From contig CALXJZ010000001.1 of NCBI GenBank assembly GCA_944388745.1, forward strand, positions 5,976-69,975: 64,000 nt of DNA. The letters run 5' to 3'. Positions 7,401 to 40,871 of this stretch are shown in pieces (position 1 is the stretch's first letter; the number at the start of each line of letters is the position of its first letter). The DNA is from an uncultured Clostridia bacterium. Lineage in GTDB: Bacteria > Bacillota > Clostridia > TANB77 > CAG-508. The translations under genes and the position numbers were made by a program. The notes beneath the pieces were generated by a model. That model was not told the DNA's origin, did not search any database, and was given only the letters and a program-made list of their open reading frames with translations.

Positions 7401-10400
7401 CATTATCTAACTTTTTATCTACACTTAATTCTATACTTCCATCAAATTTGTTGTATCCATTTGGTCCTGTTGTTTCTTTTATTACATATGTATCTGGTAT
7501 TTCTGTGTTTGCTATTCCAAATGTTCCTAAGTTTACTATTCCGCTTGCATTTGTTGCTTCTTTGTCTTCTCCATTTACATTGAATATTGCTCCAGTTAGT
7601 TTTGCTCCTGTTTCTCCGTCTTGTTTTACTAACTCTATTTCATAGCTTCCTTCTATCTTTTTGTTTGGTACTGTTACTGTTATCTTTCCATTTTCTAAGT
7701 TGGCATTTACTTTTCCTTCTGCTAATCCTGTTCCTTCTACATTTTTTAATTCTATGTTATTTACTACATATTCTCCATCTTGTATTCCTTTTGTTACTTC
7801 TAGCTCTACACTATTAAATATTTTGTTGTATCCTTCTGGTGCTTCTATCTCTTCTATTTTTATTGTCTCTGTTCCTTCTTCTGTTATTTCTATTCCTTCT
7901 ATTTCTATTTTTCCCTCTGCATTTGTTCTTTCTGTCTTTTCTGTTCCATCTGCTAGTCTTACCTTAAACTCTGCACCTTCTAATACCTTTTCTTCATTTT
8001 CTTGGTCTACCTTTAATATTTCTAAGTTGTATCCTCCTGCTATCTTTTCATTTTCTACTGTTATTGTTACCTTACCTGTTGTTACATCTAATGTTACTGA
8101 AACATTTTCTGTTATTGTTGCTCCTGTGCTGTCTTTTACTACCATTGTTGTATTTTCTGTGTCTACTACATAGTTTCCATTTTCTAACTTTTTAGCTACA
8201 CTTAGTTCTATGCTTCCTTCAAATTTGTTGTATCCATTTGGTCCTGTTATTTCTTTTATTACATACGTATCTGGTGTTTCTATGTTTGTTATTGTAAATG
8301 TTCCTAAGTTTACTATTCCACTTGCATTTGTTGCTGTCTTATCTTCTCCATTTACATTGAATACTGCTCCTGATAGTTTTTCTTCTGTTTTTCCATCTTG
8401 TTTTACTAGCTCTATTTCATAGTTTCCAGTTGCTTTATCTAATATTAGTTTTTCAAAATCGTCATCATCTTGTTGTCCTTTATAGTAATAATTTGAATCT
8501 GCTAAATTTGATTGGTTGTTATTTCCTGTGTAATTTTCCATATTAGTTTGATTTACACTTGGTTCTGTCTCTGGTTCTGAATCTCTATCTAGCCCTTCTT
8601 GGTTTGTTATTGTAACATTACTCTCTGCATCGTATTCTTCCGCAATCCATGCAACATTTGTTAATACTTTTTCTCTTTCTCCTGGCTGTTCTACTACTTC
8701 GCAAGTTATTTCTATTGTTTCTTTGTCTAATTCTCCTCCTGTATATTTAGCTAAATTATCTGTATTGCCTGCTTTTCTAATTAAGTTTACTGTATTTGTT
8801 TCCTCATCATAGCTTTCTAATTCAAAATTTCCACTTACTACTTGTGAGAATTTTAATCCCTCTGGTAATTGATCTACTATTTTTGTTGCTCTTCCTTCTT
8901 TTTCTCCTTCATTATATATTGTAATTTCATATGTTACTATATTTCCTGTTTCTACTTTTACTGGATCTTTTCTATGTTTATATGTCGCTGTTGTTCCATT
9001 TTCTAATGTTGTTGTATCTATATTTGGTATTCTTGTATTACTTCCTGTTAATGTTTCTCCATTTACTTTTGTAATATATTTTCTAAGTGATAAGTCAAAT
9101 TCCTTTTTTACATTATCTACTGTTATCGTTATTTTCTGAGTTGTTTTATCTATTGTTACTGGTATATTTTGTGTAATTTCTGTTCCTGTGCTATCTTTTA
9201 CTACCATTGTTGTGTTTTCTGTATCTACTACATAGTTTCCATTTTCTAATTTTTTGGCTACATTTAGTTCTATACTTCCGTCAAATTTGTTGTATCCATT
9301 TGGTCCTGTTGTTTCTTTTATTACATATGTATCTGGTCTTGTTATATCTGTTATTTCTACTGTTCCTAAACTTAAAATTCCACTTGAATTTGTCGCTGTT
9401 TTATCTTGATTGTTTACATTAAATACTGCTCCCGATAGTTTTTCTCCTGAAACTCCATCTTGTTTTACTATCTCTATTTCATAGCTTCCTTCTATCTTTT
9501 TGTTTGGTACTGTTACTGTTATCTTTCCATTTTCTAAGTTGGCATTTACTTTTCCTTCTGCTAATCCTGTTCCTTCTACATTTTTTAATTCTATGTTATT
9601 TACTACATATTCTCCATCTTGTATTCCTTTTGTTACTTCTAGCTCTACACTATTAAATATTTTGTTGTATCCTTCTGGTGCTTCTATCTCTTCTATTTTT
9701 ATTGTCTCTGTTCCTTCTTCTGTTATTTCTATTCCTTCTATTTCTATTTTCCCCTCTGCATTTGTTCTTTCTGTCTTTTCTGTTCCATCTGCTAGTGTTA
9801 CCTTAAACCTTGCATCTTCTAATACCTTTTCTTCATTTTCTTGGTCTACCTTTAATATCTCTAATCCATATTCTCCTGCTATCTTTTCATTGTCTACTGT
9901 TATTGTTATTTTACCAGTCGTTTTGTCTATTGTTACTGGTATATTTTCAGTAATTTCTGTTCCTTCGCTGTCTTTTACTACCATTGTTGTATTTGCAATA
10001 TCTACTACATATCTTCCATTTTCAATTTTTTTTGCTACATTTAATTCAATGCTTCCTGTAAATCCATTGTATCCACTTGGTGCTGTTACCTCTTTTATTA
10101 CATAGCTATCTCGTGTTGAAGCATTTGTTATTTGTATTGTTCCTAAACTTACTATTCCGCTTGAATTTGTTGCTGTTTTATTTTGTCCATTTACACTAAA
10201 TATTGCTCCAGTTAGTTTTGCTTCTGAAATTTCATCTTGTTTTACTAGTTCTAATTCGTATTCTCCTTGTAAATTAGGTATTTCAATCTCTAATTTTTCT
10301 GGTATTGAAATTTCTTCTTTTTCTGGTATTACTACTGGTTGCTCATCACCATTTGTGTTTGACGCCCATAAAGTAAAGTTCGTTTTATCATAATCTATAT

Positions 10401-11478
10401 TTATCTCTAAACTTATCGTTTTTTGTATAGTTTGTTCTAAAGGTAGAGAAATATAGAAATCCTCTCCTATTAAATCTTCAATTGTTGTTCCTGCTGACAC
10501 TTGGTTTTTATTTTCATTTAGTAAAATGTAGTCATTTGTCTGTGCATTGTTTATTTTTGTAATAAATTCTAAATCAAATGCTTTTATATTATTTTTTGTA
10601 ATATGTATTGGTCCAATTATTGTTCTTGATCCTTGTATTTCATAATCTAATTCCTGTGTATCTATTTGTATTGGTGCTTTTTGTGCATTTGTAATATTGT
10701 CATATTCTGGTGCTTTTTCTTTCGCAATTCTTATTAGGTATTTATATAAAACTTCCGCTTGTACTTGTCTTTGTTGCCCTTCTGGTCTATTTAAATCTGA
10801 CAAAGTTGTATATGTTATTTTATTTTCTGTATAATAAAGCCATCCTGAATTACCTGTTTTATCATATATATTTCCGTTTTCCCCATAATTCGTAAAATAC
10901 CATAATGCTGCTTGTTGTACTGCTTCAATGTCGTCATTTGTTAATGAATATTGATAAGCACTACTATATATTCCTGCTGCATTTAATAAGTTCTCTTTAT
11001 ATTCTTCATTTGAAACTCCATCATAATAAAACATATCTAATATTGCTAATATTGCACTATATTGACTTATGGTTGTCCCATCATCTAGCTCTATTGTGCC
11101 TTCCACTAAGCCTCTTAATATTTCATTTTCTTTTGCAATATCTTCTTTTTCTTGTTTCATATCATAAAATACATCATACGTTGCTCTTTTATCTACATTT
11201 TGAAATCCTACTCCTGCTTTTAAGCAATATATATTATTTTCAGAGTATATATTTGATGTTGCATTTTGATATTCAATTAAATTCCAAATTTTATCTCCTC
11301 CTGAACTCGGATTTCCTATTGCATATCCTATCCCATCACTTTTAAGTTCAGTTATTCCAATGTATTTTGGATTGCTTGATGAATCTGTTGCCAATGATAT
11401 CGCATTTAAGCTAATTATTAGCATTAAAATTAAACTCACAAATACTACGATCACTGTTTTCAAACTTTTCATCTTCAT
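4471..11478 (-). CDS. giant cell-surface adhesin: signal peptide, N-terminal thioester (TQXA-like) domain, tandem SpaA-like prealbumin-fold isopeptide domains and DUF11/CARDB-like repeats, C-terminal TM anchor
   Basis: 2335 aa. Signal peptide MKMKSLKTVIVVFVSLILMLIISLNA. Cys (NIYCLKAGVGF) plus VQQAALWYF resembles the thioester Cys...TQxA(I/L)W motif. At least 8 repeats of G(P/S)NGYNKF.GSIEL.VAKK (SpaA-like). Four repeats of DLALRKF/W...YNHTKEPV...GD.V.Y.IRVYNEG...GYA.EI.D.LP (DUF11-like). Ends ...GGIVLITIAGGVFLIKKFVI without LPXTG. Confidence 0.85.
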   Translation of the reverse strand: MKMKSLKTVIVVFVSLILMLIISLNAISLATDSSSNPKYIGITELKSDGIGYAIGNPSSGGDKIWNLIEYQNATSNIYSENNIYCLKAGVGFQNVDKRATYDVFYDMKQEKEDIAKENEILRGLVEGTIELDDGTTISQYSAILAILDMFYYDGVSNEEYKENLLNAAGIYSSAYQYSLTNDDIEAVQQAALWYFTNYGENGNIYDKTGNSGWLYYTENKITYTTLSDLNRPEGQQRQVQAEVLYKYLIRIAKEKAPEYDNITNAQKAPIQIDTQELDYEIQGSRTIIGPIHITKNNIKAFDLEFITKINNAQTNDYILLNENKNQVSAGTTIEDLIGEDFYISLPLEQTIQKTISLEINIDYDKTNFTLWASNTNGDEQPVVIPEKEEISIPEKLEIEIPNLQGEYELELVKQDEISEAKLTGAIFSVNGQNKTATNSSGIVSLGTIQITNASTRDSYVIKEVTAPSGYNGFTGSIELNVAKKIENGRYVVDIANTTMVVKDSEGTEITENIPVTIDKTTGKITITVDNEKIAGEYGLEILKVDQENEEKVLEDARFKVTLADGTEKTERTNAEGKIEIEGIEITEEGTETIKIEEIEAPEGYNKIFNSVELEVTKGIQDGEYVVNNIELKNVEGTGLAEGKVNANLENGKITVTVPNKKIEGSYEIEIVKQDGVSGEKLSGAVFNVNNQDKTATNSSGILSLGTVEITDITRPDTYVIKETTGPNGYNKFDGSIELNVAKKLENGNYVVDTENTTMVVKDSTGTEITQNIPVTIDKTTQKITITVDNVKKEFDLSLRKYITKVNGETLTGSNTRIPNIDTTTLENGTTATYKHRKDPVKVETGNIVTYEITIYNEGEKEGRATKIVDQLPEGLKFSQVVSGNFELESYDEETNTVNLIRKAGNTDNLAKYTGGELDKETIEITCEVVEQPGEREKVLTNVAWIAEEYDAESNVTITNQEGLDRDSEPETEPSVNQTNMENYTGNNNQSNLADSNYYYKGQQDDDDFEKLILDKATGNYEIELVKQDGKTEEKLSGAVFNVNGEDKTATNASGIVNLGTFTITNIETPDTYVIKEITGPNGYNKFEGSIELSVAKKLENGNYVVDTENTTMVVKDSTGATITENVSVTLDVTTGKVTITVENEKIAGGYNLEILKVDQENEEKVLEGAEFKVRLADGTEKTERTNAEGKIEIEGIEITEEGTETIKIEEIEAPEGYNKIFNSVELEVTKGIQDGEYVVNNIELKNVEGTGLAEGKVNANLENGKITVTVPNKKIEGSYEIELVKQDGETGAKLTGAIFNVNGEDKEATNASGIVNLGTFGIANTEIPDTYVIKETTGPNGYNKFDGSIELSVDKKLDNENYVIDAENTTMVVKDSEGTEITQNIPVTIDKTTGKITITVDNEKIEGNYVVEIVKKEQGTETVLPGAVFNVNGEDREATNANGILSLGTVEITDTTTLDTYTITETSAPEGYNKFEGSIELSVAKTIQNGVYVIDTENTTMVVKDSTGATITQNIPVTINITTGRITIEIDNEKIVGDYELEIVKVDSETETPLSGAVFNVNGEDREATDSNGILNLGTFQITDTTTLDTYTITETSAPDGYNKFTGSIELSVAKTIQNGVYVIDTENTIMVVKDNTGATITENVPVTIDKTTGKITITVDNVKKEFDLALRKFIVAVSRDENIEEDEYLRNEDGSYSRAPVVDASILNTEDENGNLITTATYNHTKEPVEVRKGDTVIYTIRVYNESELSGYAEEITDYLPDELEFLPNHLINQQYEWTIEGNRVTTDYLSKEKETEERQNLIEAFDETRVNEEEPLYYKEVQIACKVKDNARSDWKITNLAQITEDADKNGDETDDRDSTPDGGFEEPEGEDRPTYKDDETGEYIPGQEDDDDFEKVIVKEFDLALRKFIIAVSNDQTIEEDEYLRNEDGSYTREPVVDTSLLNTEDEEGNLITTAIYNHTKEPVLVQKNDIVIYMLRVYNEGDIDGYAAEIKDHLPPYLEYVDGEFNDQYGWEVSEDGRTLTTRYLENSLINKPVINEEGAYELSYQEVPVMCRVIESAPTNENITNIADITEYQDDNHEEITDRDSESDNVELPNDENLPGYKDDETGEYIPGQQDDDDFEKVIVKEFDLALRKWVTEAIVIENGKETVTVTGHQPYDDPEEIVKVELHRKKLNQVTVKFRYSIRVTNEGDIPGYVKEITDYIPEGLRFDPADNPGWTDEGNNVISTRLPQDILLQPGEYTEVEVVLTWINNENNMGVMTNIAEISEDDNDYDLPDKDSTPDNQKEGEDDIDDAPVMISISTGATRTYFMLGGIVLITIAGGVFLIKKFVI

Positions 11479-27852: not shown

Positions 27853-29121
27853 TTAGTCTTTTAAAAAGTAAATTGTATTTATACTTACTGAATTTGCTAT
27901 TTTAACAATATCATCTTTTTGAACTTTTTGTACAATTTCTTTATATTCTTCTGGACTTATCTTATTATTTGATAATTCTTGTCCAAAATAATATGTGATA
28001 CATGTGTCTTGTTCATCATCAATTAAATCTATTGTTGATATTATCCCTTTTTTAGCATTTTCTATATCTTCTTCAGTAAAGTCTCCTTTTTTCATATCAT
28101 CAATTTGTTTTCTTACAATTTCTAATGCTTTTTCATAGTTGCTTATTTCTATTCCACAATTTATAAATATATTGCTTTTTTGTCTTATATAACTAGAACT
28201 TGCAACATATGCCAGATGTGCTTTTTCTCTTACATTTTGGAACATTTTAGAATTTGCTGTTCCACCTAAAATACTATTATATAACAAAGCATCATATTTT
28301 TGTTCTTCATCTTCTAATTTAATATCCAATCCTAAAACCAATTTACCTTGTGTTACTTCCATTGATTCTGTAACAACATTTTCTTTTTCTGTACTTTTAG
28401 TTATCAATTTTGGCATTACGTATTTTGGTTCTCTTTCTTGTAAATTTTTGATATTTTCGTTTTCTTCGATAATTTCTTCAATATCATCTGGCAATATTCC
28501 AGAGACAAGAATATCAATTTTACAATTTTTAATTAGCTCTTGATAATATTCATATAGATTTTTTCCATTAATTGCATATAAATCTTCGACATATCCAAAC
28601 TTATATAATCCATATGGCTCATCTTTATACATTTCTTCAATACATCTATTTAAAGCATATCTTGCTTTATTATCTATTTTTCCTTCTATTCTTTGCTTAA
28701 TAGTATTTTTTTCTTGCTCTACATATTCTTTTTTGAATTCTCCATTTTCGATATATGGATTAAATACTATTTCAAGTATCTTTTCAAGTGTAGTTTTCAA
28801 CATTTTTTCCTTTTGTTGTGGAATAAAATCATCATTTATTGTCTCCATATAGAATTTTAAAACTTGATTATCTCCAATTTTATCTAATCCACAGTCAAAA
28901 CTTGCTCCATACATTTCTTCCATTTGCTTACTTATTTCTTCTTGTGAAGGCATATTTTTAGAACCTCTTCTTAAAATTGTTGATATTAATGCATTTCTAG
29001 TTACATTTTCTCTTGTTAGTTCTGTTGTTAAAAATACTGCCACTAGGTTTGTTTTAAATTTATTTGTATTAAGTTCATGAAATTCTATTCCTTTTTTTAT
29101 TTCTTTTTCTTGATATTGCAT
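27853..29121 (-). CDS. M16-family peptidase-like protein (non-catalytic partner; no HxxEH)
   Basis: Same length and architecture as the neighbouring M16 gene, and the typical two-gene arrangement. Confidence 0.7.
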   Translation of the reverse strand: MQYQEKEIKKGIEFHELNTNKFKTNLVAVFLTTELTRENVTRNALISTILRRGSKNMPSQEEISKQMEEMYGASFDCGLDKIGDNQVLKFYMETINDDFIPQQKEKMLKTTLEKILEIVFNPYIENGEFKKEYVEQEKNTIKQRIEGKIDNKARYALNRCIEEMYKDEPYGLYKFGYVEDLYAINGKNLYEYYQELIKNCKIDILVSGILPDDIEEIIEENENIKNLQEREPKYVMPKLITKSTEKENVVTESMEVTQGKLVLGLDIKLEDEEQKYDALLYNSILGGTANSKMFQNVREKAHLAYVASSSYIRQKSNIFINCGIEISNYEKALEIVRKQIDDMKKGDFTEEDIENAKKGIISTIDLIDDEQDTCITYYFGQELSNNKISPEEYKEIVQKVQKDDIVKIANSVSINTIYFLKD

Positions 29122-29227
29122 AAATTTTCCTCCTTTTTATTGACTTTCAATTTTTACTTTAATATTATTTATTATACACTTATTTTTTAATTTTATAAAT
29201 TTTATTTACTATTCTAACAATTATAAC

Positions 29228-29274
29228 AAAAAAATTGGAAGTTTTCGCATTATATGTACATCTTTAACTTCCAA
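29228..29274 (-). terminator. rho-independent terminator after rpsU
   Basis: TTGGAAGTT..N22..AACTTCCAA 9-bp stem followed on the minus strand by TTTTTTTG. Confidence 0.6.
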
Positions 29275-29296
29275 TCCAATCCTTTTTATTTTCATA

Positions 29297-29467
29297 CTAA
29301 AATTTTCTTTTTCTTGCTGCTTCTGATTTTTTCTTTCTCTTTACACTAGGTTTTTCATAGTGTTCTCTTTTACGTACTTCCTGAAGTACTCCATTTCTTG
29401 CGCATTGTCTTTTAAATCTTCTTAGTGCGTCTTCTATATTTCCATTATTAACTTTTATTTCTGACAT
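29297..29467 (-). CDS. rpsU: 30S ribosomal protein S21
   Basis: Manual translation [56 protein letters not shown] (56 aa). GGAGGGGAATAAAAA SD. Below the ORF-track size cut-off. Confidence 0.85.
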
Positions 29468-29565
29468 TTTTTATTCCCCTCCTTCCGGTCCATACGAAAA
29501 GTGTATGTGGGATAACCCTATTTAACGTTATTTATTATATCCTAAAGGCCCATTATTGTCAATAG

Positions 29566-30204
29566 TTAAGAAGTAAATAATGATGCTATCGCATTGAAAA
29601 GTGGATTTTCAAATAACAATTCTCTCATCCAACCATTTGTAAATGGTATATACCATAAAGCTATTCCTATTAATATTACAACTATTATTGTTAATATTAA
29701 TGCTATAATATCCTTTTTAGTTATTTCTTTCATTTCTTCTCTTTTAGGTTTATTTTTATATAGTTCCTTACATAATTCAATTATTCCAGGAAATGAACCC
29801 ACTTTATGTTTTTTCATTCGTTCATTAAATTCATACACTTCTTTTTTACTGTTTCGTTGTGATTCATGAATTTTGTTTTCTTTCATATTACTTGTAGCAT
29901 TATTCATATTTCGTTTTATATTCCCATTTAAAATAGTATCATTATTTTGCTTTTGATTATATTTTTTATATAATTCTGCCTGTTCTTGTTTTTCTAATTC
30001 AGCATCATATTGCTCTTTCATAAATTCATCTGTTAAAACACTATATGCCTCATTTATTTCTTTTATTTTTTCTTCGGCATAATTCTTTTTTTGATCTGAA
30101 TATAAGTCTGGATGATATTTTTTTACCAATACTTTATATGCTTTTTCTATTACTTCTTTCGAGGCTTTTTTATTAACCTCTAATATTTCATAGTAATTTT
30201 TCAT
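29566..30204 (-). CDS. J-domain (DnaJ-like) protein with C-terminal transmembrane segment
   Basis: N-terminal DYYEILEVNKKASKEVIEKAYKVLVKKYHPD (HPD motif) and a C-terminal hydrophobic helix. Confidence 0.7.
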   Translation of the reverse strand: MKNYYEILEVNKKASKEVIEKAYKVLVKKYHPDLYSDQKKNYAEEKIKEINEAYSVLTDEFMKEQYDAELEKQEQAELYKKYNQKQNNDTILNGNIKRNMNNATSNMKENKIHESQRNSKKEVYEFNERMKKHKVGSFPGIIELCKELYKNKPKREEMKEITKKDIIALILTIIVVILIGIALWYIPFTNGWMRELLFENPLFNAIASLFTS

Positions 30205-30263
30205 TGCTATTCCCTACTTTTCTTTTTTTCTTTAGTGTTTTCATTTTATCTCAAAAAAAAGAA

Positions 30264-30282
30264 AATAGCAATACATTTTTGC
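30264..30282 (-). terminator. terminator after the cohesin-domain gene
   Basis: Minus-strand TAGCAAAAATGTATTGCTA followed by TTTTCTTTTTTTTG. Confidence 0.5.
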
Positions 30283-30308
30283 TACTTTCTTTAGTCTAAA
30301 CTTGTTTT

Positions 30309-31118
30309 CTATACTGCTCGCCTATATTTAATATAAAATATTATCGCAGATATAATAGAAATAACGACCGCTATTGCAATTATACTTGTAAATCCTGCAT
30401 ATGGTAATGTTTTATTTGCTGTTGTACTTTGATCTACATTTGAACCATTAACTCTTGTATTATTTCTTATTGATGTATTATCACTAGAACCATTTCCACC
30501 TGTTGTACTGTTATTTTCAACTGTATTACTTCCTCCTGCTGTATTATTATTTCCTGATGTATTATTTCCTCCTGTTGTATTATTATTTCCTGATGTATTA
30601 TTTCCTCCTGTTGTGTTATTATCATTATTATTTTCTTCTTCTATGTTAATTGTAGATAATATTCCTGTTCCATCTATAGTTGTATACCCTGATGAACCTT
30701 GTATACTATCTAAAGAAATTGTAGTATTCCCGATTTCAGCATCATCTTTCACTTTAAAATTGATTGTAGCTGTATTAGTCCTTTCTTGTACAACTTCTCC
30801 TGTACTAGTATTAGCTACCATATTCCCCTCATTTTCAAACACTTCCCAACCTGAAGCCGCTGTTACATTAACAAATTCTAATACATTTTGATCATAAATA
30901 ATTTTTGTTTGATATGCACCTATTCCTTGATCTCCACTAGTTACATTAATATTATCAATTATAATATCTACTGAAAATGTGTCTCCTGGATTTAATGTTA
31001 TAGTTGAAGCTTCTAATTGTAACTCAAAGCTTTCTCCTTCTGCAAATGAATTTGTTGAAAATAAAGTTAATATCATGCATAAAATACTTAATATCGCTAA
31101 TAATTTTGTTCGTTTCAT
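30309..31118 (-). CDS. cell-wall-anchored single-cohesin-domain protein (anchoring-scaffoldin-like), N/T/G-rich linker, LPxxG-type sorting signal
   Basis: Signal peptide. About 140 aa with the cohesin-like pattern (NPGDTFSVDIIIDNI...GIGAYQTKIIYDQNVLEFVNV...ATINFKVKDDAEIGNTTISL). Low-complexity NNTTGGNNTSG linker. C-terminal LPYAG, hydrophobic helix, then KYRRAV. Supported by two adjacent dockerin-bearing genes. Confidence 0.55.
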   Translation of the reverse strand: MKRTKLLAILSILCMILTLFSTNSFAEGESFELQLEASTITLNPGDTFSVDIIIDNINVTSGDQGIGAYQTKIIYDQNVLEFVNVTAASGWEVFENEGNMVANTSTGEVVQERTNTATINFKVKDDAEIGNTTISLDSIQGSSGYTTIDGTGILSTINIEEENNNDNNTTGGNNTSGNNNTTGGNNTSGNNNTAGGSNTVENNSTTGGNGSSDNTSIRNNTRVNGSNVDQSTTANKTLPYAGFTSIIAIAVVISIISAIIFYIKYRRAV

Positions 31119-31282
31119 TTGTATTCCCCCATCATTAAAATCTTACAATTATATTTTGACATATTTTTTAATTATTTTCAAGTGTTTTTCTTATTATTTT
31201 ATTATACCAATACTTAAAAATATTAATCTCCTTACAGTTAATTGAATTTGCAGATTTTATTACAGTTATGTTACAATTTTCT

Positions 31283-34200
31283 TTACATATCTTCTACTAT
31301 AATTCTTTTTAGCATCAACATGTCTGTTACATCTACATTTCCATCTTCATTCATATCTGCTAATAATAAAGCTCGTCCTGTTAGTATCCATTCTGTTCTA
31401 CTTCCTGCAACTAAATGTCTCTTTAACATTAGTAAATCTGTTACATCTATCCTTCCATCTTGGTTTACATCTCCAATTTCTATTTTTTCTATGTTTATTA
31501 TTTCTACAATTGCCTGTATCTCATTTCCTGCTAAATCTTTTATTGTTATTGTTTCATTTGTGTTTTCACTATATTTTTTTGTTAGTATTTTTTTATTTTC
31601 TGATAGTATCCATCCTTCTACTTCTTGTATTTCTTCATTTGATGTTATTGTTACTATTACAGGATCTTCTGTTATTTCTTTTGTACTATACTCTATATTT
31701 ATTATTGGTGCTGTATTGTCAAAGTTAAATGCTTCACTTTTTGTTATTGTTTCATTTTCTAAATTATCTTCTGCATATATCCACAAATACCATTTTCCAT
31801 CTCCTGTACTTTTTGTGATTGTTTGTCCATTTTCAAAACTTTCTGTAAAACTTTCTTTTGTAGGCTCTGTCTCACTTTGTGTCCATTGGTATTTTAAACT
31901 TATATCTTTTACACCAACCTCTTCTTGGTTATCTGCTACACCTACTTTTACACTATATCCCTTTTGTGGATTTTCACTTCCATTAGGTTCAAATGTTATC
32001 TCTGGTCCTTCATTATCAATTATATATCTTTGTCCATTTTCTTCTGCGTATTTATGCCCTTCTGTATCTGACTTTGTATATATAATTAAATTATCGCAAT
32101 GTTCAAAAGCCTCACTTTCTATAGTTCCTACGTTTTCTGGAATAACTATGCTTTTTAAATCACTACAATCATAAAACGCTTGACTTCCTATCTTTGTTAC
32201 ACTAAGGGGAAGTATTATGTTTTTTAAACTGATACATCTTGAAAAAGCCATCGTCTCTATAGTAGTTACTCCTTCTGGTATTATTATACTTTCCAAATTA
32301 CTACATTCATCAAAAGTTGCATATTCTAATGTAGTTACACTATCTGGTATAATTACTTTTACCAAATTAGTACATTGATAAAATGCTCTTTCTTTTATAG
32401 AAATAACTCCTTCTGGAATACTATATTCACTTATATCTTCCTTTCCTTCTGGAAATTTTATTAACTCTGTTTTTTCTTTATTAAATAAGATTCCATTTTC
32501 ACTTATGTAATTATTATTATATGAATTCACATTAATACTTTGTAGATTGCTACATCCATAAAATACATCATCACCTATGCTTGTTACTCCTCGTGGAATT
32601 TCTATATTTGTTAAATTACTACATCTTGCAAATGCATTATTTCCTATAACAGTCACTGTATCTGGAATTACTATATTATTCAAATTTATACAATAATTAA
32701 AAGTATATGATTCTATGGTCTTTATATTATTAGATAAAACTACATTTTCTAAATTAATACAGTTAGAAAATGCTTCACTATCAATAACAGTTACACTATT
32801 TGGAATATTTATACTTTTTAAACTAGTACAGTAGGCAAATGCTCTAAAACCTATACTTGTTATACTTTCTGGAATATTTATATTTTTCAAATTAGTACAA
32901 TTATAAAACATACAATTACCTATAGTTGTTATTTTATTGTCTACAACTACATTTTCTATAAAAGTAGTATATTGATTATTGTGCCAGTCACTTTGTTCAT
33001 TATATTCCCAGTTTTTTATTTCTCCTTCTCCTGTTATTGTCAATGTTTTATCTTCTAAAGTCCATTTAGCAATTACACTTTCATCTTGATTTACTGATAT
33101 GTCCCAAGATTTTTCTTCTTCAATTTGATATTCTGTAGAAGTTTCATACGCTATTCCATTTAAAATATATGGTACTTTATGTTCTTCTGCATATTTATGC
33201 CCTATACTATCTGCTTCAACATATAATATTAATTGATTACATCCAGAAAATGCACTTTCCCCTATACTCGTTACACTAGTAGGAATATTTATATTTACTA
33301 AACTAGCACAGTTTGAGAAAGCTTGATTCTCTATACTTATTACTCCTTCTGAAATATTTACACTTCTTAAATTACTACAATTATAAAAAGTAGAATATTT
33401 TATATCTGTTACATTTTCTGGTATATTTATACTTTCTAAACTACTACAACCATAAAAGGCTAGCTCACCTATACTTGATACATTTTGAGGTATTTCTATA
33501 TTTTTTAGAATAGTACATCTTCGAAATGCATTTTCGCCTATACTTTCCATACTGTCTGGTAATCTTATACTTTCCAAAGTGTTACAATTTGCAAATGCAT
33601 AACTTTGTATTCTTTTTATACCTCCTGCAAAGTATATGTTTTGCAAATTATTACAATTATAAAAAGTATAATCTCTTATAGTTGTCACCTTGTCTGGAAT
33701 AGTTATGTTTTCTAAATTAGTACATCCATAAAATGAATAAGATTCTATGTTTTCAACACTGTTAGGTATAATAATACTTTCTAGGCTTGTATTACCATAA
33801 AAAGCATAATAATAAATAGTTGTTACAGTATCTGGTATTTCATATTCTCTTAAATCTTTCTTTCCTCCCGGAAAACAAATAAGTTCATCTTTTTCTTTAT
33901 TAAATAATACTCCATTTTCATCAATAAATTGATTATTATTTTCATTGACATTTATTTTCTCTAGATTAGTACAACCGGCAAAAGCTCCGTAACCTATACT
34001 TATCACATTAATCGGAATATCTATACTTGTTAAATTACTACATCCTGAAAATGCATAGTATGATATACTTGTTAAACTTTCTGGAATTTCTATACTCGTT
34101 AAATTATTACATCCTGAAAATGCATTCTCTCCTACTCTTGTTACTCCTTCCGGAATTTTTATTTTATCTAAACTACTACATTTTGAAAACGCACTATTTT

Positions 34201-34636
34201 TTATATTTATTACTCCAACTGGAATATTTATACTCTCTATACTACTACAATTTGAAAATGCATAACTTCCTATATTGGTTATACCTTCTTCTATACTTAC
34301 ACTTTCTATAATATTAGTATATTGTGTATTATGCCAATCTTCTTCTACATCATATTTCCAATCTTTCATTTCGCCTGTTCCAGATACTGTTAATTTCTTA
34401 TCTTCTAAAGTCCATTTGGCAATCACACTTCCATCTCCATTTGCAGATATATCCCATGTTTCTTCTCCTTTTATTTCATTATTTTTTGATATCACTTCTG
34501 TTGTATCTGTGCTTTCTGTTGGTGTATCTGCCGCAAATGACTCTTTTTGAAATAGAGGTGTTATTGGCATTCCTAATTGAAATATCATTGTTAATATTGC
34601 AATTATTGATATAGTTTTTCCTATTCCCTTTTTCAT
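31283..34636 (-). CDS. secreted BspA-type leucine-rich-repeat protein with C-terminal Ig-like and type-I dockerin module
   Basis: More than 25 repeats of ..SV.SIG..AF.GC..L.SI.IP... (BspA/Treponema-type LRR). C-terminal duplicated Ca-binding dockerin loops DVNQDGRIDVTDLLMLKRHL and DMNEDGNVDVTDMLMLKRII. Confidence 0.8.
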   Translation of the reverse strand: MKKGIGKTISIIAILTMIFQLGMPITPLFQKESFAADTPTESTDTTEVISKNNEIKGEETWDISANGDGSVIAKWTLEDKKLTVSGTGEMKDWKYDVEEDWHNTQYTNIIESVSIEEGITNIGSYAFSNCSSIESINIPVGVINIKNSAFSKCSSLDKIKIPEGVTRVGENAFSGCNNLTSIEIPESLTSISYYAFSGCSNLTSIDIPINVISIGYGAFAGCTNLEKINVNENNNQFIDENGVLFNKEKDELICFPGGKKDLREYEIPDTVTTIYYYAFYGNTSLESIIIPNSVENIESYSFYGCTNLENITIPDKVTTIRDYTFYNCNNLQNIYFAGGIKRIQSYAFANCNTLESIRLPDSMESIGENAFRRCTILKNIEIPQNVSSIGELAFYGCSSLESINIPENVTDIKYSTFYNCSNLRSVNISEGVISIENQAFSNCASLVNINIPTSVTSIGESAFSGCNQLILYVEADSIGHKYAEEHKVPYILNGIAYETSTEYQIEEEKSWDISVNQDESVIAKWTLEDKTLTITGEGEIKNWEYNEQSDWHNNQYTTFIENVVVDNKITTIGNCMFYNCTNLKNINIPESITSIGFRAFAYCTSLKSINIPNSVTVIDSEAFSNCINLENVVLSNNIKTIESYTFNYCINLNNIVIPDTVTVIGNNAFARCSNLTNIEIPRGVTSIGDDVFYGCSNLQSINVNSYNNNYISENGILFNKEKTELIKFPEGKEDISEYSIPEGVISIKERAFYQCTNLVKVIIPDSVTTLEYATFDECSNLESIIIPEGVTTIETMAFSRCISLKNIILPLSVTKIGSQAFYDCSDLKSIVIPENVGTIESEAFEHCDNLIIYTKSDTEGHKYAEENGQRYIIDNEGPEITFEPNGSENPQKGYSVKVGVADNQEEVGVKDISLKYQWTQSETEPTKESFTESFENGQTITKSTGDGKWYLWIYAEDNLENETITKSEAFNFDNTAPIINIEYSTKEITEDPVIVTITSNEEIQEVEGWILSENKKILTKKYSENTNETITIKDLAGNEIQAIVEIINIEKIEIGDVNQDGRIDVTDLLMLKRHLVAGSRTEWILTGRALLLADMNEDGNVDVTDMLMLKRIIVEDM

Positions 34637-34867
34637 GTGTAGTTCCCCTTTCTTTGTTACACTTTCTTTCTCTTAAATCTATTTTACTTTACTTATAATA
34701 TATAAATTTTTTTATACTTTGTAAATATAGCTTTTGCTTGGTAGCGTGAATGTATATTAATTCTACTTACGGCTACTATTCTTTTACTTTTTCTTTTTAA
34801 TTATTAAGTTTTTATTACATTTTTGTTTAATTATTATTTTTTTTTAATCTCTTAACATTATTATCAG

Positions 34868-34894
34868 CAAAAAAATAGACGTACCTCGTACGTC
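34868..34894 (-). terminator. rho-independent terminator after the second dockerin gene
   Basis: Minus-strand GACGTACGAGGTACGTC hairpin followed by TATTTTTTTGC. Confidence 0.65.
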
Positions 34895-34949
34895 CGTAGT
34901 CTGTTTTCTTTTGAAAACATATCATTTATTTTCAATTTTCATATTATTA

Positions 34950-37900
34950 TTACATGTTCTCTACAATTATTCTTTTTAACATCAACATATCTGTTATATC
35001 TACATTTCCGTCTTCATTCATATCTGATGCTAGGAAATAATTTCCTGTTAATATCCAATTCACTTTATTTCCTGCTACTAGATGTCTTTTTAACATTAAG
35101 AAGTCCGTTACATCTTTTTTTCCATCTTGATTGATATCTCCTATTACTATCTCCGGTTCTTCTTCAATATTATTAATCTCAATTATCACTTGCGTTTCAT
35201 TTCCAACTAAATCTTTTATAGTTATAGTCTCTTTTGTATTTGCACTATATTCTTTTGTCAATGTCTTTTTATCACTTGATAATGTCCAACCTTCTACTCC
35301 TTGTATTTCTTCATTTGATGTTATTGTTACTTTTACATTCTTTCTTGTTGGATTTTTTGTACTATAATTAACTGTTAAAATTGGTGATACTTCATCTTTT
35401 TCATTTACCTCTATTGTAAATGTTGAACCTTTTAAAATCCCTTCATTAATTGTAACCATTGCTTTTTTAGCTGTACTAGAATGATGTAAAGTTAATATTA
35501 TTTTAGTTCCATCTTCGTTCAATTTACAATTATATACCTGCAAACCTTCTTCAGAATATGCCTTACTTTCTTTATTTTGGGCTTGCAAAAATATTTTTGG
35601 CAAACTAATTTCTTCTCCTATCTCTCCATTTGAAATCAGTGCTTGATTACTTACATTATATCCACTTATATCTGATATTTCTTCTAGCACACTTACATCT
35701 GAAATACAATTATTCCACGCACCAAATTTCTTCAAATTCTTTAATTCTTTTACTACTTCTATATTATCTATTTTATTTCCTTCTCTTTCCAAACTTCCTT
35801 GTATTAATTTGTCAAAATATACTTCTTCTAAATTTTTCAAACTTGAAAGGTTAGTAATATCCGTCAAATTATTTGTTTGTAAATTTAAATACTTTAAATT
35901 TTCACAATCTAGTATAGGAATCTCTTTTAAATTATTATATTTTAAATCTAATCTTTCTAGTTCTATTAATCCATTTAATGGAGTAATATCTATTATCTTG
36001 TTAAAACTCAAATCTAAATTTGTTAATTTTTTTAAATTATTCAAACTACTAATATCTCTTATATTATTCCAACTTAAATTTAAAATCTCCAATTTTTCTA
36101 AATCCTTCAAACACTCAATATCAGTTATATTATTCCTTTTTAAATTTAATGTTGTTAAACTAGTCAAGTTTTCCAATCCTGTAATATTATTTATTTCTTT
36201 ATCTGATAAATCTAATTCTGTTATATATTCTATATCTTCTTCTAATATATTAATTTCCAAACTATCATCATTATTTTCATAAATAAATATTCCTATTTTA
36301 TCAAGCAAACTATTATAAAAGTTCTTATCTTTTAATGATATTACTATTTCATCTTTTTCATCATTAAAAACTGGATATCCATCATTTTTATTTTCAGAAT
36401 CCAAAACAAATACATCATCACTATTATTTAATAAATTGACAAAATCTTCTGTTTTCATAAAATTACTGTCTTTTGATATTATATTATTTAGAACATTCCC
36501 TGTATATGTTGATTTTAAATAATAACAATTGCTTATCGTTCCAGTGTTAGTATTTATAATATTTACAGTTTTAGCAGTATTAAGTTGACTAATAGTATAA
36601 CAATTTGTAATACTTCCATCATTTTGATATATTAATCCCATTACTTTTGGTGAAATATTTAATCCATCACGTACCTCACTTGAAATTTCTCCTTTTGAAT
36701 AACAATTATATATCTCACCTGAATAATTTAATACCGCTATACCAGCTGAAACAAGATTATATGCTCCTGTCCTACTAACACCATTTGATTTTCCAATAGA
36801 AGTAGTTACACTACCATAATTAGCACATCTATTTACAGTACCACATTGGTTGCTACTTATAATTCCTCCTGCCGAAACAACTCCCTTAATATTTCCAAAA
36901 TTGATACAATCTATAAGATTTCCCCCATTACTTTGGACAATCCCTGCAATTTCTGAAGCAGTATATTCATAATTTTCGGGATCTTCATTTTTATGATGAC
37001 TAATAATTTCTCCATAATTATTACATCTTTTTACAAAAACTTTTTCTTTTTTTCCTCCTGTTGTTGCAACTATTCCTGCAACTCCATCAGCACCTTCTAC
37101 ATTTCCATAATTATGACAATTTACTATGATTGCCATAGAATTTTCTGATACAATTGTGCTTTGCCCACTTATTCCTCCTACATCAGAATTGCCTCTATTT
37201 ATTGTAGATTCTATTTTTCCATAATTTAAACAATCTTTTATTCCACTAGTATTATCTCCACATATTCCTCCTATAAAACGTTTACCTCTTACGTTTCCAT
37301 TATTAATACAATCTATAACTATATTATCATATTGTGTAGTTTTATTACATCCTACGATTCCTCCAACATACTCTCTATTTTCTATCCTAGCTTCATTTAT
37401 ACTCTCTTTTACAATTCCGTTATTTAATCCTACTATTCCTCCCACAAAAGTTAACTCGTCTGTATCTATTATTACATCAGAATTATTATTACACTTAAAA
37501 ATAGTTCCAGAATTTTTACCTACTATTCCTCCTACATAATTATACGATATATAAGCGTTTAAACTAACTGAACCGTTACTAACACTATCTCTCATTTCTC
37601 CACTATTACTTCCTACAATACCACCAATATTTGTCTCAGTCCCATGTATATCAAGCATAGTCTCTACATTTTCTATAATTCCTCTATTTGTTCCTACTAA
37701 TCCTCCTACACCCCAATCGTTAGCTTCATTTCCAATAACTGTTCCAGAAGATATATTTAAATTTTTTATAGTTCCATTGTTATCTGAAAAGAAACCTTTA
37801 CCCAAATTATTGCTATCACTTATATATAAATTACTTATTATATGGTTTCTTCCATCAAATGTACCTTCAAAAGCATAAGAATCATTTCCAATTGGTGTCC

Positions 37901-38153
37901 ATTGATTATTTTCATTACCTTCTAAATCAATATCAGCAGTTAATACAACTGTCTTTTCTTCATAGGTATTTCCATTATTAACATCATTAGCAAATGCAAT
38001 TAATTCTTCCTTGGTTGAAATTTCTAAATCCGCTGTTATTTCATCCGCTGCCAACACTTTTATATTTAACTCTGATATCATTGGTAATATTAATTGAAAT
38101 ATCATTGTTAATATTACAATTATTGATATAGTTTTTCCTATCCCTTTTTTCAT
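34950..38153 (-). CDS. secreted GLUG/beta-helix-repeat plus internalin-type LRR protein with C-terminal Ig-like and type-I dockerin module
   Basis: Signal peptide nearly identical to that of the 31283..34636 gene. Gly-rich parallel beta-helix/GLUG-like repeats (GGIVG.N.G.I..C.N). Listeria-type 22-aa LRRs (LNLSWNNIRDISSLNNLKKLTNLDLSFNKI). Dockerin DINQDGKKDVTDFLMLKRHL and DMNEDGNVDITDMLMLKRII. Confidence 0.75.
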   Translation of the reverse strand: MKKGIGKTISIIVILTMIFQLILPMISELNIKVLAADEITADLEISTKEELIAFANDVNNGNTYEEKTVVLTADIDLEGNENNQWTPIGNDSYAFEGTFDGRNHIISNLYISDSNNLGKGFFSDNNGTIKNLNISSGTVIGNEANDWGVGGLVGTNRGIIENVETMLDIHGTETNIGGIVGSNSGEMRDSVSNGSVSLNAYISYNYVGGIVGKNSGTIFKCNNNSDVIIDTDELTFVGGIVGLNNGIVKESINEARIENREYVGGIVGCNKTTQYDNIVIDCINNGNVRGKRFIGGICGDNTSGIKDCLNYGKIESTINRGNSDVGGISGQSTIVSENSMAIIVNCHNYGNVEGADGVAGIVATTGGKKEKVFVKRCNNYGEIISHHKNEDPENYEYTASEIAGIVQSNGGNLIDCINFGNIKGVVSAGGIISSNQCGTVNRCANYGSVTTSIGKSNGVSRTGAYNLVSAGIAVLNYSGEIYNCYSKGEISSEVRDGLNISPKVMGLIYQNDGSITNCYTISQLNTAKTVNIINTNTGTISNCYYLKSTYTGNVLNNIISKDSNFMKTEDFVNLLNNSDDVFVLDSENKNDGYPVFNDEKDEIVISLKDKNFYNSLLDKIGIFIYENNDDSLEINILEEDIEYITELDLSDKEINNITGLENLTSLTTLNLKRNNITDIECLKDLEKLEILNLSWNNIRDISSLNNLKKLTNLDLSFNKIIDITPLNGLIELERLDLKYNNLKEIPILDCENLKYLNLQTNNLTDITNLSSLKNLEEVYFDKLIQGSLEREGNKIDNIEVVKELKNLKKFGAWNNCISDVSVLEEISDISGYNVSNQALISNGEIGEEISLPKIFLQAQNKESKAYSEEGLQVYNCKLNEDGTKIILTLHHSSTAKKAMVTINEGILKGSTFTIEVNEKDEVSPILTVNYSTKNPTRKNVKVTITSNEEIQGVEGWTLSSDKKTLTKEYSANTKETITIKDLVGNETQVIIEINNIEEEPEIVIGDINQDGKKDVTDFLMLKRHLVAGNKVNWILTGNYFLASDMNEDGNVDITDMLMLKRIIVENM

Positions 38154-38399
38154 GTATAGCTTTCCTCCCTTTATACTACTTTCCTATAAAATATTTTTTT
38201 CTTACTTATACTATATAAAGTTTCTCACACTTTGTAAATATGCTTTTTTTCTAGCATTATGAATATATGATATTATAACTTACGGATACTATCTTTTTGC
38301 TTTCTTTTTAATTTTTTTAAATTTTTATTACAATTTTATTTCACTACAATTATTTATACTATTATTTTAAATAAAACTCCGTATTTTAACCTATTCATC

Positions 38400-38428
38400 T
38401 TGAAACTCCAACATTTTTGTTATATAAT
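38400..38428 (+). promoter_or_regulatory. sigma-A promoter for leuS (TTGAAA, 17 nt, TATAAT)
   Basis: cTTGAAActccaacatttttgtTATATAAT, about 50 nt upstream of the leuS SD/ATG. No T-box leader recognised. Confidence 0.55.
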
Positions 38429-38480
38429 ACAATTCATATAATAAAAATTTGAAAATAAAAAATATGAAAGGGGCTTTAAT

Positions 38481-40871
38481 ATGGGCTACAATTTTACAGA
38501 AATCGAAAAAAAATGGCAAAACTATTGGGACGAGCATAAAACTTTTTATACAGATGTATGGGATTTTTCTAAACCTAAATTTTACGCATTAGACATGTTT
38601 CCATACCCATCAGGACAAGGACTACATGTTGGTCACCCAGAAGGATATACTGCAACAGATATAATGTCTAGAATAAGAAGAATGCAAGGATATAATGTTT
38701 TACATCCAATGGGATGGGATGCTTTCGGTTTACCTGCAGAACAATATGCAATAAAAACAGGAAATCATCCGGCAGAATTTACAAAGGCTAATATTGCAAC
38801 TTTTAAAAGACAATTAAAAATGTTAGGATTTTCTTTTGATTGGGATAAAGAAATTTCTACATGTGACCCAGATTTTTATAAATGGACTCAATGGATTTTT
38901 AAACAATTATATAATGACGGTTTAGCAAAACTTGTTGAGATGCCTGTAAATTGGTGTGAAGGTTTAGGTTGTGTACTTTCAAATGATGAAGTTATTAATG
39001 GTAGAAGTGAAAGAGGAGACTTCCCTGTTGTTCGTAAAAATATGAAGCAATGGGTTTTAGATATTCCTCAATATGCTGAAATATTGTTAGACGGATTAGA
39101 TGATATTGATTGGCCTGAATCAACTAAAGAAATTCAAAGAAATTGGATTGGAAAATCTGAAGGTGCAGAAGTTATATTCAAGATTGCCGATTTTGATAAC
39201 ACAGAATTTACTGTATTTACCACAAGACCGGATACTTTATTTGGTGCCACATATTGCGTTATTGCTCCTGAACTTGATTTAGTAGATAAAATAACAACTA
39301 ATGAGCAAAAAGAAGCAGTAGAAAAATATAAACAAGAAGCTGCTAGTAAATCAGACTTAGAAAGAACTGAATTAAATAAAGAAAAAACGGGTGTATTTAC
39401 TGGAAGTTATGCTATTAATCCTGTAAATGGTAGAAAAATTCCTATCTGGATTTCTGATTATGTACTTTCTACATATGGTACAGGTGCAATTATGGCCGTT
39501 CCTGCTCACGACCAAAGAGATTATGAATTTGCAAGTAAATTTGGTATAGAAATAATCCCTGTATTAGAAGGTGGAGATATTTCAAAAGAAGCATTTACTG
39601 GAGATGGATTACATATCAATTCTGATTTTCTTGATGGATTAGATAAAGAAACATCTATCAAAAAAATGATTGAATATCTTGAATCTCATAAGATTGGAAA
39701 GAAAAAGATTAATTATAAACTACGTGAATGGATATTTGCAAGACAACGCTATTGGGGAGAACCAATTCCAATTGTATATTTAGATGATGAAATGAGAGCA
39801 TTAGCAGATGATGATTTACCTCTAGTTTTACCAGAACTTGAAGATTATGCTCCTTCAAAAACAGGTGCATCACCACTAGATAAAGCAACAGATTGGGTAA
39901 ATACTACATTTGAAGGGAAACCTGCTAAAAGAGAAACAAGTACAATGCCTGGTTCTGCTGGTTCAAGTTGGTATTTCTTAAGATATATTGACCCTAAAAA
40001 CAATGACGAATTCGCAAATAAAAAATTACTTGAATACTGGATGCCTGTTGATTTATATGTAGGCGGTCCTGAACATGCCGTTGGGCATTTACTATATTCA
40101 AGATTTTGGAATAATTATTTATATAATAAAGGACTTGTTCCAGTAAAAGAACCATTTGCAAAACTTCGCCATCAAGGTATGATTTTAGGTACTAATGGTG
40201 AAAAGATGAGTAAATCAAAAGGAAATGTTATCAATCCTGATGATATGGTTAAACAATATGGTGCAGATAGTTTAAGATTATATGAAATGTTTATGGGACC
40301 AATAGATGCCGTTAAACCTTGGGATGTCAACGGTATTGAAGGTACAAAGAAATTCTTAGACCGTGTTTGGAGATTATATGTAGAATCTGGAAAAATTCAA
40401 AATACTTCAAACAAAAATCTAGAAAAAGATTATCATTTTACAGTAAAAAAAGTTACAAATGATTATGAAACAATGAATTTTAACACAGCTATTTCTCAAA
40501 TGATGATTTTCATAAACAATGTTAATAAGGAAGAAATTTTTCCATTAGAATATGCTGAAGGATTTTTAAAATTACTAAATCCAATTGCACCACATATTAC
40601 TGAAGAATTGTGGAACATCTTAGGTCATGACAATACCATTAGCTATGAAAAATGGCCAACTTATGATGAAGCTAAAACTATTGACGATGAAATTACTTTA
40701 CCAATTCAGTTTAATGGTAAATTGAAAGCTACTATTCAAATTCCATTAGATGAAGATGCAAGTGTAATCAAGCAAAAAGTTCATGAAGCAATTGATTCTA
40801 AATTAGATGGAAAAACTATTGTAAAAGAAATCTATGTAAAAAATAAAATTTACAATATAGTTGTGAAATAA
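38481..40871 (+). CDS. leuS: leucine--tRNA ligase
   Basis: HIGH-class motif ([16 protein letters not shown]), KMSKS ([10 protein letters not shown]), editing-domain sequence; 796 aa. Confidence 0.95.

Follow-up and report, generated by a model that had tools for sequence, protein, structure and literature searches.

Two dockerin genes with shared ends and unrelated passengers beside a sortase-type cohesin gene in an uncultured gut Clostridia bacterium

Among the closest described systems is ScaE of Ruminococcus flavefaciens, a protein with one cohesin that is anchored through LPXTG and sortase; its ligands, bound through their dockerins, are ScaB, a cysteine peptidase and CttA, which is an adhesion protein (PMC5301203). 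In R. flavefaciens FD-1, the group-4b genes (ORF01263-01267) form a head-to-tail series of five dockerin open reading frames (ORFs) with signal peptides, conserved C-terminal and variable N-terminal parts, and 28 leucine-rich repeat (LRR) modules occur on dockerin proteins of this species (PMC2930009). Further parallels are the glycoside hydrolase/toxin pairs of Clostridium perfringens (2jh2, 2vo8, 2w1n), with cohesin and dockerin modules on mutually pairing enzymes, and the Listeria internalins, which combine a signal peptide, LRRs and LPXTG. Programmed gene conversion underlies antigenic variation in Neisseria (pilE/pilS) and Borrelia (vlsE/vls). Here we analyzed a locus consisting of two dockerin genes, A and B, and a cohesin gene in a 64,000-nt stretch of DNA, hereafter the window, from an uncultured Clostridia bacterium (GenBank assembly GCA_944388745.1, contig CALXJZ010000001.1, positions 5,976 to 69,975). 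A sequence-only reading had noted that the two dockerin genes share their ends but not their middles and had taken this as the signature of a cassette system, in which conserved ends promote the exchange of passenger domains by recombination or gene conversion; the cohesin gene went unmentioned.

The locus is most likely a non-cellulosomal cohesin–dockerin surface-display system: the gene next to the dockerin genes encodes a single cohesin with an LPx[TA]G signal, an arrangement that parallels ScaE with its ligands. In our judgment, A and B are probably old paralogues within a family that evolves by birth and death and whose secreted, adhesin-like products carry a dockerin tag and dock on the adjacent sortase-type cohesin, with ends kept by selection. 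Uncultured low-GC gut Clostridia of one clade harbour this family. GC content of the window is ~27%, and the locus is known from metagenome assemblies only, with some contigs of the lineage labelled human gut.

With ScaE the locus has in common a single cohesin with a sortase-type C-terminal signal, varied dockerin ligands (here LRR and GLUG proteins, and a Peptidase_C1 protein in the relative L102), symmetric dockerins and clustered genes. It differs by containing no multi-cohesin scaffoldin, carbohydrate-active enzymes or X-module, by its adhesin-like LRR/GLUG cargo and by the motif LPYAG; docking here is a prediction, and the cohesin fold is closest to non-cellulosomal C. perfringens cohesins. 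Like group 4b, it has head-to-tail genes each with a signal peptide, LRR-dockerin proteins among them, whereas the window genes share promoter and leader at the DNA level, have a cohesin partner next door and carry no transglutaminase-like domains. The C. perfringens pairs likewise represent non-cellulolytic cohesin–dockerin use in a low-GC, host-associated Clostridium-like organism and supply the best structural matches to the window cohesin model, but their modules sit on enzymes, in contrast to the dedicated, putatively wall-anchored socket and non-enzymatic LRR proteins seen here. Internalins resemble the family in having family-wide export and anchoring modules with diversifying LRR passengers, the LRR of gene B being itself internalin-type; their attachment by sortase is direct, whereas here it would be indirect, through a dockerin on a sortase-type cohesin. 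Conserved flanks around variable segments, and conversion detectable in the wider dockerin family, recall pilE/pilS and vlsE/vls, yet the locus has no silent cassettes, single expression site, high-identity flanks, strain-level variability or dedicated recombination element. Unlike the R. flavefaciens systems, it sits in uncultured gut Clostridia at a chromosomal position that is conserved and variable in copy number. Our literature search returned nothing relevant on dockerins together with BspA and cohesin, or on dockerin gene conversion.

The cohesin gene lies directly downstream of gene A (Table 1). Its product comprises a signal peptide, a cohesin (residues ~30-160), a disordered linker rich in N, G and T, the motif LPYAG, a 24-residue hydrophobic helix and a KYRRAV tail. 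The match to Pfam Cohesin (PF00963) scored 33.9 bits (cut-off 24.1), comparable to orthologues (34.0-34.1 bits), and a more distant relative, L033, reached 46.8 bits. Searching the PDB with the protein sequence gave no match at E<=1, indicating a divergent cohesin for which a fold search was needed. In the AlphaFold2 (AF2) model, pLDDT was >90 at residues 30-160. Among its PDB matches in Foldseek, cohesins held all of the first 34 places, the best being the non-cellulosomal C. perfringens modules 2jh2_A (E 4.2e-10, TMt 0.83) and 2vo8 (TMt 0.84). Across 34 homologues, the sorting-type motif conforms to LPx[TA]G, its P and G never varying, and the hydrophobic helix and basic tail are conserved with it; the window protein has A at position 4, and LPKTG, LPNTG and LPYTG variants occur. 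On the basis of this conservation, which includes canonical variants, LPx[TA]G is probably a sortase sorting signal. In L033, a BspA-dockerin gene is followed by a cohesin gene with canonical LPKTG.

Comparison of the gene A and gene B regions by blastn returned exactly two homologous blocks, which are collinear and have nothing significant between them. On this point the sequence-only reading holds: A and B are true paralogues that differ in their passengers but are homologous at both ends, also in non-coding DNA. The 3' block (A 31690..31283, B 35366..34950) is 77.6% identical over 420 nt (E 5e-89), and the last 165 amino acids of A and B share 64% identity (BLASTP, E 2e-51). The C termini had been called near-identical, which overstates values of 64-72% at the amino acid and 77% at the nucleotide level. 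Both proteins end in a dockerin (Dockerin_1, PF00404) scoring 49.8 bits in A and 43.5 bits in B against a cut-off of 22.9. In the dockerin of A, a Ca2+-binding loop (DxNxDGxxD) followed by a helix occurs in duplicate (DVNQDGRIDVTD...LKRHLV and DMNEDGNVDVTD...LKRIIV), with equivalents in B; the helices of the two proteins are almost identical, as (V/I)NQDG..DVTD(L/F)LMLKRHLV and MNEDGNVD(V/I)TDMLMLKRIIV. An AF2 model of the last 165 residues of A (pLDDT 83) shows a beta-sandwich, with weak Ig-like Foldseek matches, followed by a three-helix dockerin (helices at 113-164) that matched the C. thermocellum dockerin 1ohz_B with TMt 0.90, a root mean square deviation of 1.7 and 42% identity. Dockerins of other organisms are 30-46% identical, compared to 77% between A and B. 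A metagenome scan with the C-terminal module recovered mostly unrelated generic dockerins, the informative loci being L032-L038.

The 5' block (A 34842..34563, B 38355..38080; 77.5% over 285 nt, E 7e-56) spans ~207 nt of non-coding DNA and 74 nt of coding sequence (the first ~25 codons) and holds the promoter, 5' untranslated region and signal peptide. The earlier reading had described the first ~30 codons as near-identical; residues 1-21 differ at one position, MKKGIGKTISII[A/V]ILTMIFQL, and identity is 46% across the first 65 amino acids (BLASTP). Because the cohesin's signal peptide is unrelated to the A/B leader, the A/B similarity is not generic. All three promoter motifs listed in that reading are present in both upstream regions; read on the other strand, they are the -35 region (TATTTACAAAG), an AT-rich spacer and an 'AGTA.CCGTAAGT' box. 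The homology it had described there stands, but with other limits: on the gene B side it reaches 38355 rather than 38330, and in front of gene A 34843-34949 is non-homologous and contains the terminator of gene B.

In both genes the predicted promoter has the form TTTACA-17-TATAkT, preceded by box 1 (AAATGTmATAAAAAyTTAAT) and CCGTAAG. Across the window, box 1 returned the two family copies and one further match with three mismatches, a chance-level result, and a third copy of the 5' or 3' block was absent from the 64 kb. The boxes are retained in an alignment of seven promoters from four genomes as well as in L097, L100 and the distant L102, where they remain recognizable although the cohesin is only 26% identical and the signal peptides and dockerins of its two paralogues are dissimilar. 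In all loci examined, the combination CCGTAR...TATTTACAA occurs only upstream of family genes. Persistence in L102 and restriction to the family suggest functional constraint, that is, selection rather than conversion. An Rfam scan of 29000-39000 gave zero matches at E<=1, so the conserved upstream block corresponds to no known riboswitch or leader and no T-box precedes leuS, the gene on the other side of gene B.

Gene B is followed by an intrinsic terminator, GGACGTAC-GAG-GTACGTCT followed by a T-run, and this hairpin also precedes the family promoter in L002, L003, L004, L097, L098 and L100. The terminator scan of 31119-31282 found nothing between gene A and the cohesin gene. Besides read-through from gene A, the cohesin gene may have its own promoter, for which an extended -10 is a candidate. 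The 164-nt spacer before the cohesin gene is conserved with L098.

Table 1 Coordinates of features of the dockerin–cohesin locus in the window
Feature	Coordinates	Strand	Details or basis
Gene B	34950..38153	-	1067 amino acids; ORF; head-to-tail with gene A
Gene B, conserved upstream block	38154..38355	-	blastn, promoter scan, seven-promoter alignment
Gene B, box 1	38335..38316	-	motif coordinates
Gene B, CCGTAAG	38285..38279	-	motif coordinates
Gene B, -35 TTTACA	38238..38233	-	promoter scan
Gene B, -10 TATAGT	38215..38210	-	promoter scan
Gene B, ribosome-binding site (RBS) GGGAGG	38169..38164	-	
Gene B, signal peptide	38046-38153	-	
Gene B, GLUG-like beta-strand repeat region	~36324-38045	-	
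Gene B, internalin-type LRR	~35631-36290	-	
Gene B, beta-sandwich module	35154-35408	-	
Gene B, type I dockerin	34953-35153	-	Pfam Dockerin_1 E 3.8e-11
Gene B, intrinsic terminator	34877..34895	-	terminator scan
Gene A	31283..34636	-	1117 amino acids; ORF
Gene A, conserved upstream block	34637..34842	-	blastn, promoter scan, alignment
Gene A, box 1	34822..34803	-	motif coordinates
Gene A, CCGTAAG	34772..34766	-	motif coordinates
Gene A, -35 TTTACA	34725..34720	-	promoter scan
Gene A, -10 TATATT	34702..34697	-	promoter scan
Gene A, RBS AGGGG	34649..34645	-	
Gene A, signal peptide	34529-34636	-	
Gene A, two BspA-type LRR_5 blocks	31997-34528	-	internal duplication, visible in translation
Gene A, first beta-sandwich module	31712-31996	-	
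Gene A, second beta-sandwich module	31487-31711	-	common to gene B
Gene A, type I dockerin	31286-31486	-	Pfam Dockerin_1 E 3.8e-13
Cohesin gene	30309..31118	-	269 amino acids
Cohesin gene, candidate promoter (extended -10 TGGTATAAT)	31201..31209	-	sequence only; putative
Cohesin gene, intrinsic terminator	30258..30292	-	terminator scan

The passengers of A and B, ~850 residues each, are unrelated, as BLASTP found no high-scoring segment pair with E<0.4 between residues ~65 and 900. Gene A encodes BspA-type LRRs (PF13306, LRR_5; Pfam E 8.5e-186 in six stretches). In gene B, residues 622-841 matched InlA (E 8.5e-38, PDB phmmer) and InlH (1.7e-20) along with Pfam LRR_4 and LRR_8. The preceding repeat region is assigned as GLUG-like: gene B itself has no PF07581 (GLUG) match at E<=0.01 in Pfam, while its relatives L2_g4 and L4_g3 score above the PF07581 cut-off (33.5 and 34.6 bits versus 20.5) and nearly all listed homologues of the passenger contain PF07581. 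In this nomenclature, L2_, L3_ and L4_g# denote array genes of L002, L003 and L004, and W_A and W_B are window genes A and B. Each window gene has one copy of a 231-nt stalk module; as a separate observation, the module is tandemly repeated in relatives, with 4-5 copies in L2_g4 (L002:16051-17225; 86-92% identity between copies) and 6-7 in L4_g3 (L004:8880-10277).

In five further assemblies from other samples, the locus is collinear and 99.75-99.85% identical to the window. Both dockerin genes keep their lengths across the six assemblies, and single-nucleotide polymorphisms number 5-7 per gene, a rate similar to that of leuS. Agreement of six independent assemblies shows that the locus is no assembly artefact and is stable at the strain level; the swapped passengers or additional cassettes that the sequence-only reading had proposed to look for did not appear in these assemblies.

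Between species the picture is more dynamic. A cohesin search returned 83 cohesin clusters, ~80 of them at 47-100% identity. The order [array]-cohesin-dnaJ-rpsU-M16-M16-spo0E is conserved in L003, L004, L092, L098, L100 and L102, with the dockerin array upstream of the cohesin block, usually after ftsH, and comprising 0 to ~6 genes depending on the species: none in L098/L099, one in L100, two in the window, two in L102 (BspA-dockerin and Peptidase_C1-dockerin) and at least five in L002 (continued by an L092-type locus), L003 and L004. Array genes in relatives are mostly 17-70 nt apart and have signal peptides without promoters of their own, the promoter module standing only before the first gene of a transcription unit. 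In the window, divergently transcribed leuS (38481-40871, plus strand) occupies the position held by ftsH in all other examined species, indicating that the upstream border of the array was rearranged. The L002 locus, initially considered the same as that of the window, was rejected as such and represents the ftsH-side part of a longer sister-species array, of which L092 provided the cohesin-side part together with a divergence baseline. Similarly, L2_g4 was dismissed as an ortholog of W_B, given 16-42% amino acid identity in the middle, while L2_g4 and L4_g3 are 73% identical throughout. The true counterpart of gene B is found in L097 (72% amino acid identity), with collinearity from promoter to stalk at 75-78% nucleotide identity, and the B-to-A junction with its terminator and promoter is collinear with the L4_g0-to-g1 junction.

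Several individual arrays deserve separate mention. The ftsH–cohesin spacer of L098 (9693-10000; also in L099) retains the terminator and the first half of box 1 fused to cohesin-upstream sequence, the scar left by clean deletion of the entire array. At L092:3081-4385, identically in L093 and L094 and thus in three samples, the positional counterpart of gene A has decayed: the promoter is kept, followed by a 215-residue LRR_5 fragment without signal peptide and a 180-residue piece with a single-repeat dockerin (GDINQDEKIDITDMLMLKRKIVNNM). In L102 (7642-9846), the papain-like Peptidase_C1-dockerin gene adjoins the BspA-dockerin gene, which recalls the cysteine-peptidase dockerin bound by ScaE in R. 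flavefaciens. A gene with AAA-ATPase_like/PDDEXK_9 domains lies inside arrays at L002:17677-19350, L003:10773-11579, L092:1083-2753, L097:7952-9334 and L100:8096-9769; it follows spo0E in L098 and is absent from the array of the window.

Module exchange in the wider family is real, and this part of the cassette interpretation holds. In a test of the pairwise homoplasy index (PHI) type for incompatibility among nine C-terminal modules, none of 2000 permutations gave a value as low as the real data (p<0.0005). Synonymous divergence was gauged at positions with the same amino acid in both sequences, as the fraction of these that also have the same codon. For the C-terminal modules of L3_g1 (BspA) and L4_g3 (GLUG), this fraction was 91%, compared to a baseline of 78% for L003 versus L004 (Fisher p=0.0016). 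Both paralogues of L097, the B counterpart and its BspA neighbour, end in a different dockerin that is ~32% identical at the amino acid level to the family type. Its two copies (3357-3548 and 7513-7704) are 97-100% identical over ~190 nt with a sharp boundary to the adjacent stalk (65-83%), which looks as though the anchors of both paralogues had recently been replaced in a conversion-like event. The W_B passenger was also found with an L097-type dockerin (P0024), and its architecture with Big_3 repeats and an LPKTG anchor (P0025). Judged from these sequence comparisons, ends and passengers in the wider family have different histories.

An operating cassette system at the window locus is another matter. 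It would use the ends as recombination substrates, exchange passengers frequently and vary the surface within the species. Conserved ends around unrelated middles fit such a system, as do the mosaicism of the family, the conversion-like dockerin tract of L097, the excess synonymous identity between L3_g1 and L4_g3 and the interspecies variation in array size. In the window, however, the ends are 77% identical with longest exact matches of 32, 25 and 25 nt, and the 3' modules of A and B share 61/92 (66%) of codons, indistinguishable (p=0.70) from the baseline of distant orthologues (68-69%); the baseline of the window versus the sister species L092 is 84%. The 3' ends are therefore synonymously saturated, show no homogenization and are as old as or older than deep species splits. 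No silent, partial or promoter-less copies of the end modules exist in the 64 kb, both genes being complete with promoter, RBS and signal peptide, and no recombinase or invertase was found among window ORFs near the locus. Visible exchange in relatives affects the anchor module, not the passenger. Every hallmark of programmed gene-conversion variation that was tested is missing here, and the lack of silent copies and of a nearby recombinase, together with collinear assemblies and strain-level stability, led us to reject an operating cassette system at this locus; we rate this interpretation as unlikely. About as improbable is ongoing gene conversion (concerted evolution), rather than purifying selection, as the main force keeping the A and B ends similar. 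Conversion evidently occurs in L097, 17 of the 19 comparable codons among the 28 leader codons are identical (binomial p=0.03), and paralogues carry clade-specific dockerin residues (MNEDGN/IIVEDM in the window and L002, MNENGT/VIVENI in L003 and L004). Against this stand the saturated 3' block and the affinities of gene A, whose promoter is 80-81% identical to those of the sister-species genes L2_g1 and L2_g6 and 70% to that of B, and whose dockerin is 95% identical to that of L2_g2 versus 79% to that of W_B; identical codons between the W_A C terminus and L2_g2 amount to 86-88%, an ortholog-level divergence. Persistence of the boxes in L102, despite dissimilar signal peptides and dockerins, argues in the same direction.

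If a gene had recently been duplicated in tandem and one of the two copies had then acquired a new middle, the ends would be alike for lack of time to diverge; adjacent genes in the same orientation with a duplicated promoter fit this scenario. Given synonymous saturation of the ends, separate counterparts elsewhere (W_B in L097, the W_A C terminus in L2_g2) and the B-to-A junction shared with L4_g0-to-g1, we regard it as very improbable. The probability that generic signal peptides and dockerins are alike by chance, or that the assembly is chimeric, is close to nil: apart from the low complexity of AT-rich DNA nothing points that way, whereas both blastn blocks have E values far from chance and include conserved non-coding upstream DNA, only two copies occur in the window, dockerins of other organisms are much less similar and six assemblies agree. 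A few points weigh against old paralogues displayed on the neighbouring cohesin. The window motif is LPYAG and not canonical LPXTG, and no sortase gene was found among the ORFs of the 64-kb window. The leader codons lie above baseline, so the 5' ends of A and B may contain a short, older conversion tract. In L098/L099, a cohesin 78% identical to that of the window (L098) has no dockerin gene at its locus, and adjacency is hence not obligatory. Other dockerins or cohesins may exist in the genome beyond the window, and we infer that the dockerins bind the cohesin, that a sortase anchors the cohesin protein, that the promoters are active and that the passengers act as adhesins.

Shared function, namely co-regulation, Sec export, stalk and docking, best explains the conserved ends of A and B: all members would need the same regulation, export route and socket, which purifying selection preserves, leaving the passengers free to differ. 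Recombination is an occasional evolutionary by-product. In the display model that we favour, each dockerin gene would be transcribed from its own family-specific promoter module (box 1, CCGTAAG and TTTACA-17-TATAkT), and a Sec signal peptide specific to the family, ~36 residues long and predicted to be cleaved after SFA/VLA, would direct export of the product. The passenger, BspA-type LRRs in A and GLUG-like repeats plus internalin-type LRRs in B, would sit on a small beta-sandwich stalk ending in a nearly symmetric type I dockerin. This dockerin would plug non-covalently and in a Ca2+-dependent manner into the single cohesin of the 269-residue protein, itself putatively fixed to the wall through its LPx[TA]G sortase-type signal. 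In the course of evolution, genes and modules of the array would be gained, lost and recombined, including by dockerin gene conversion, with the two-gene locus stable in this species.

Elsewhere in the window, a 2335-residue surface protein (4471-11478, minus strand) combines a thioester domain with DUF11 and eight SpaA/prealbumin-like domains. Its C terminus carries a hydrophobic anchor that lacks a clear LPXTG, and its gene is a second, unrelated one of adhesin type. Adjoining the cohesin gene, 29566-30204 (minus strand) encodes a DnaJ-domain protein with a C-terminal membrane helix. It is fast-evolving, with 50-54% amino acid identity to L003/L004 (for comparison, identity to L092 is 95-97% in the adjacent M16 peptidases), and was called as two ORFs (116-123 and 82 residues) in L092 and L098.

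The locus reveals no new mechanism of programmed variation and is an ordinary though tidy representative of a known type of system. Its significance would be that cohesin–dockerin pairs also serve beyond the cellulosome, as a general means of displaying adhesin-like LRR proteins on the cell surface. The system is compact, with one socket and two plugs, each with a predicted promoter, and binding should be easily testable with recombinant proteins. Across species, repertoire evolution can be pictured from arrays of 0 to ~6 genes, the deletion scar of L098, the decayed copy of L092 and the dockerin replacement of L097. A more far-reaching interpretation, which we put forward tentatively and hold to be somewhat doubtful, is that the locus could be the minimal two-gene form of a clade-wide plug-and-socket display, with a conserved sortase-anchored cohesin and a hypervariable array of 0 to ~6 dockerin-tagged LRR, GLUG or protease genes at a fixed chromosomal site, en-bloc conversion of the anchor as in L097, presumably tracking a changed cohesin, and a dedicated cis-module (box 1 plus CCGTAAG) under one regulator. 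If true, this would constitute a natural experiment in cohesin–dockerin coevolution and adhesin repertoire turnover in uncultured human gut Clostridia.

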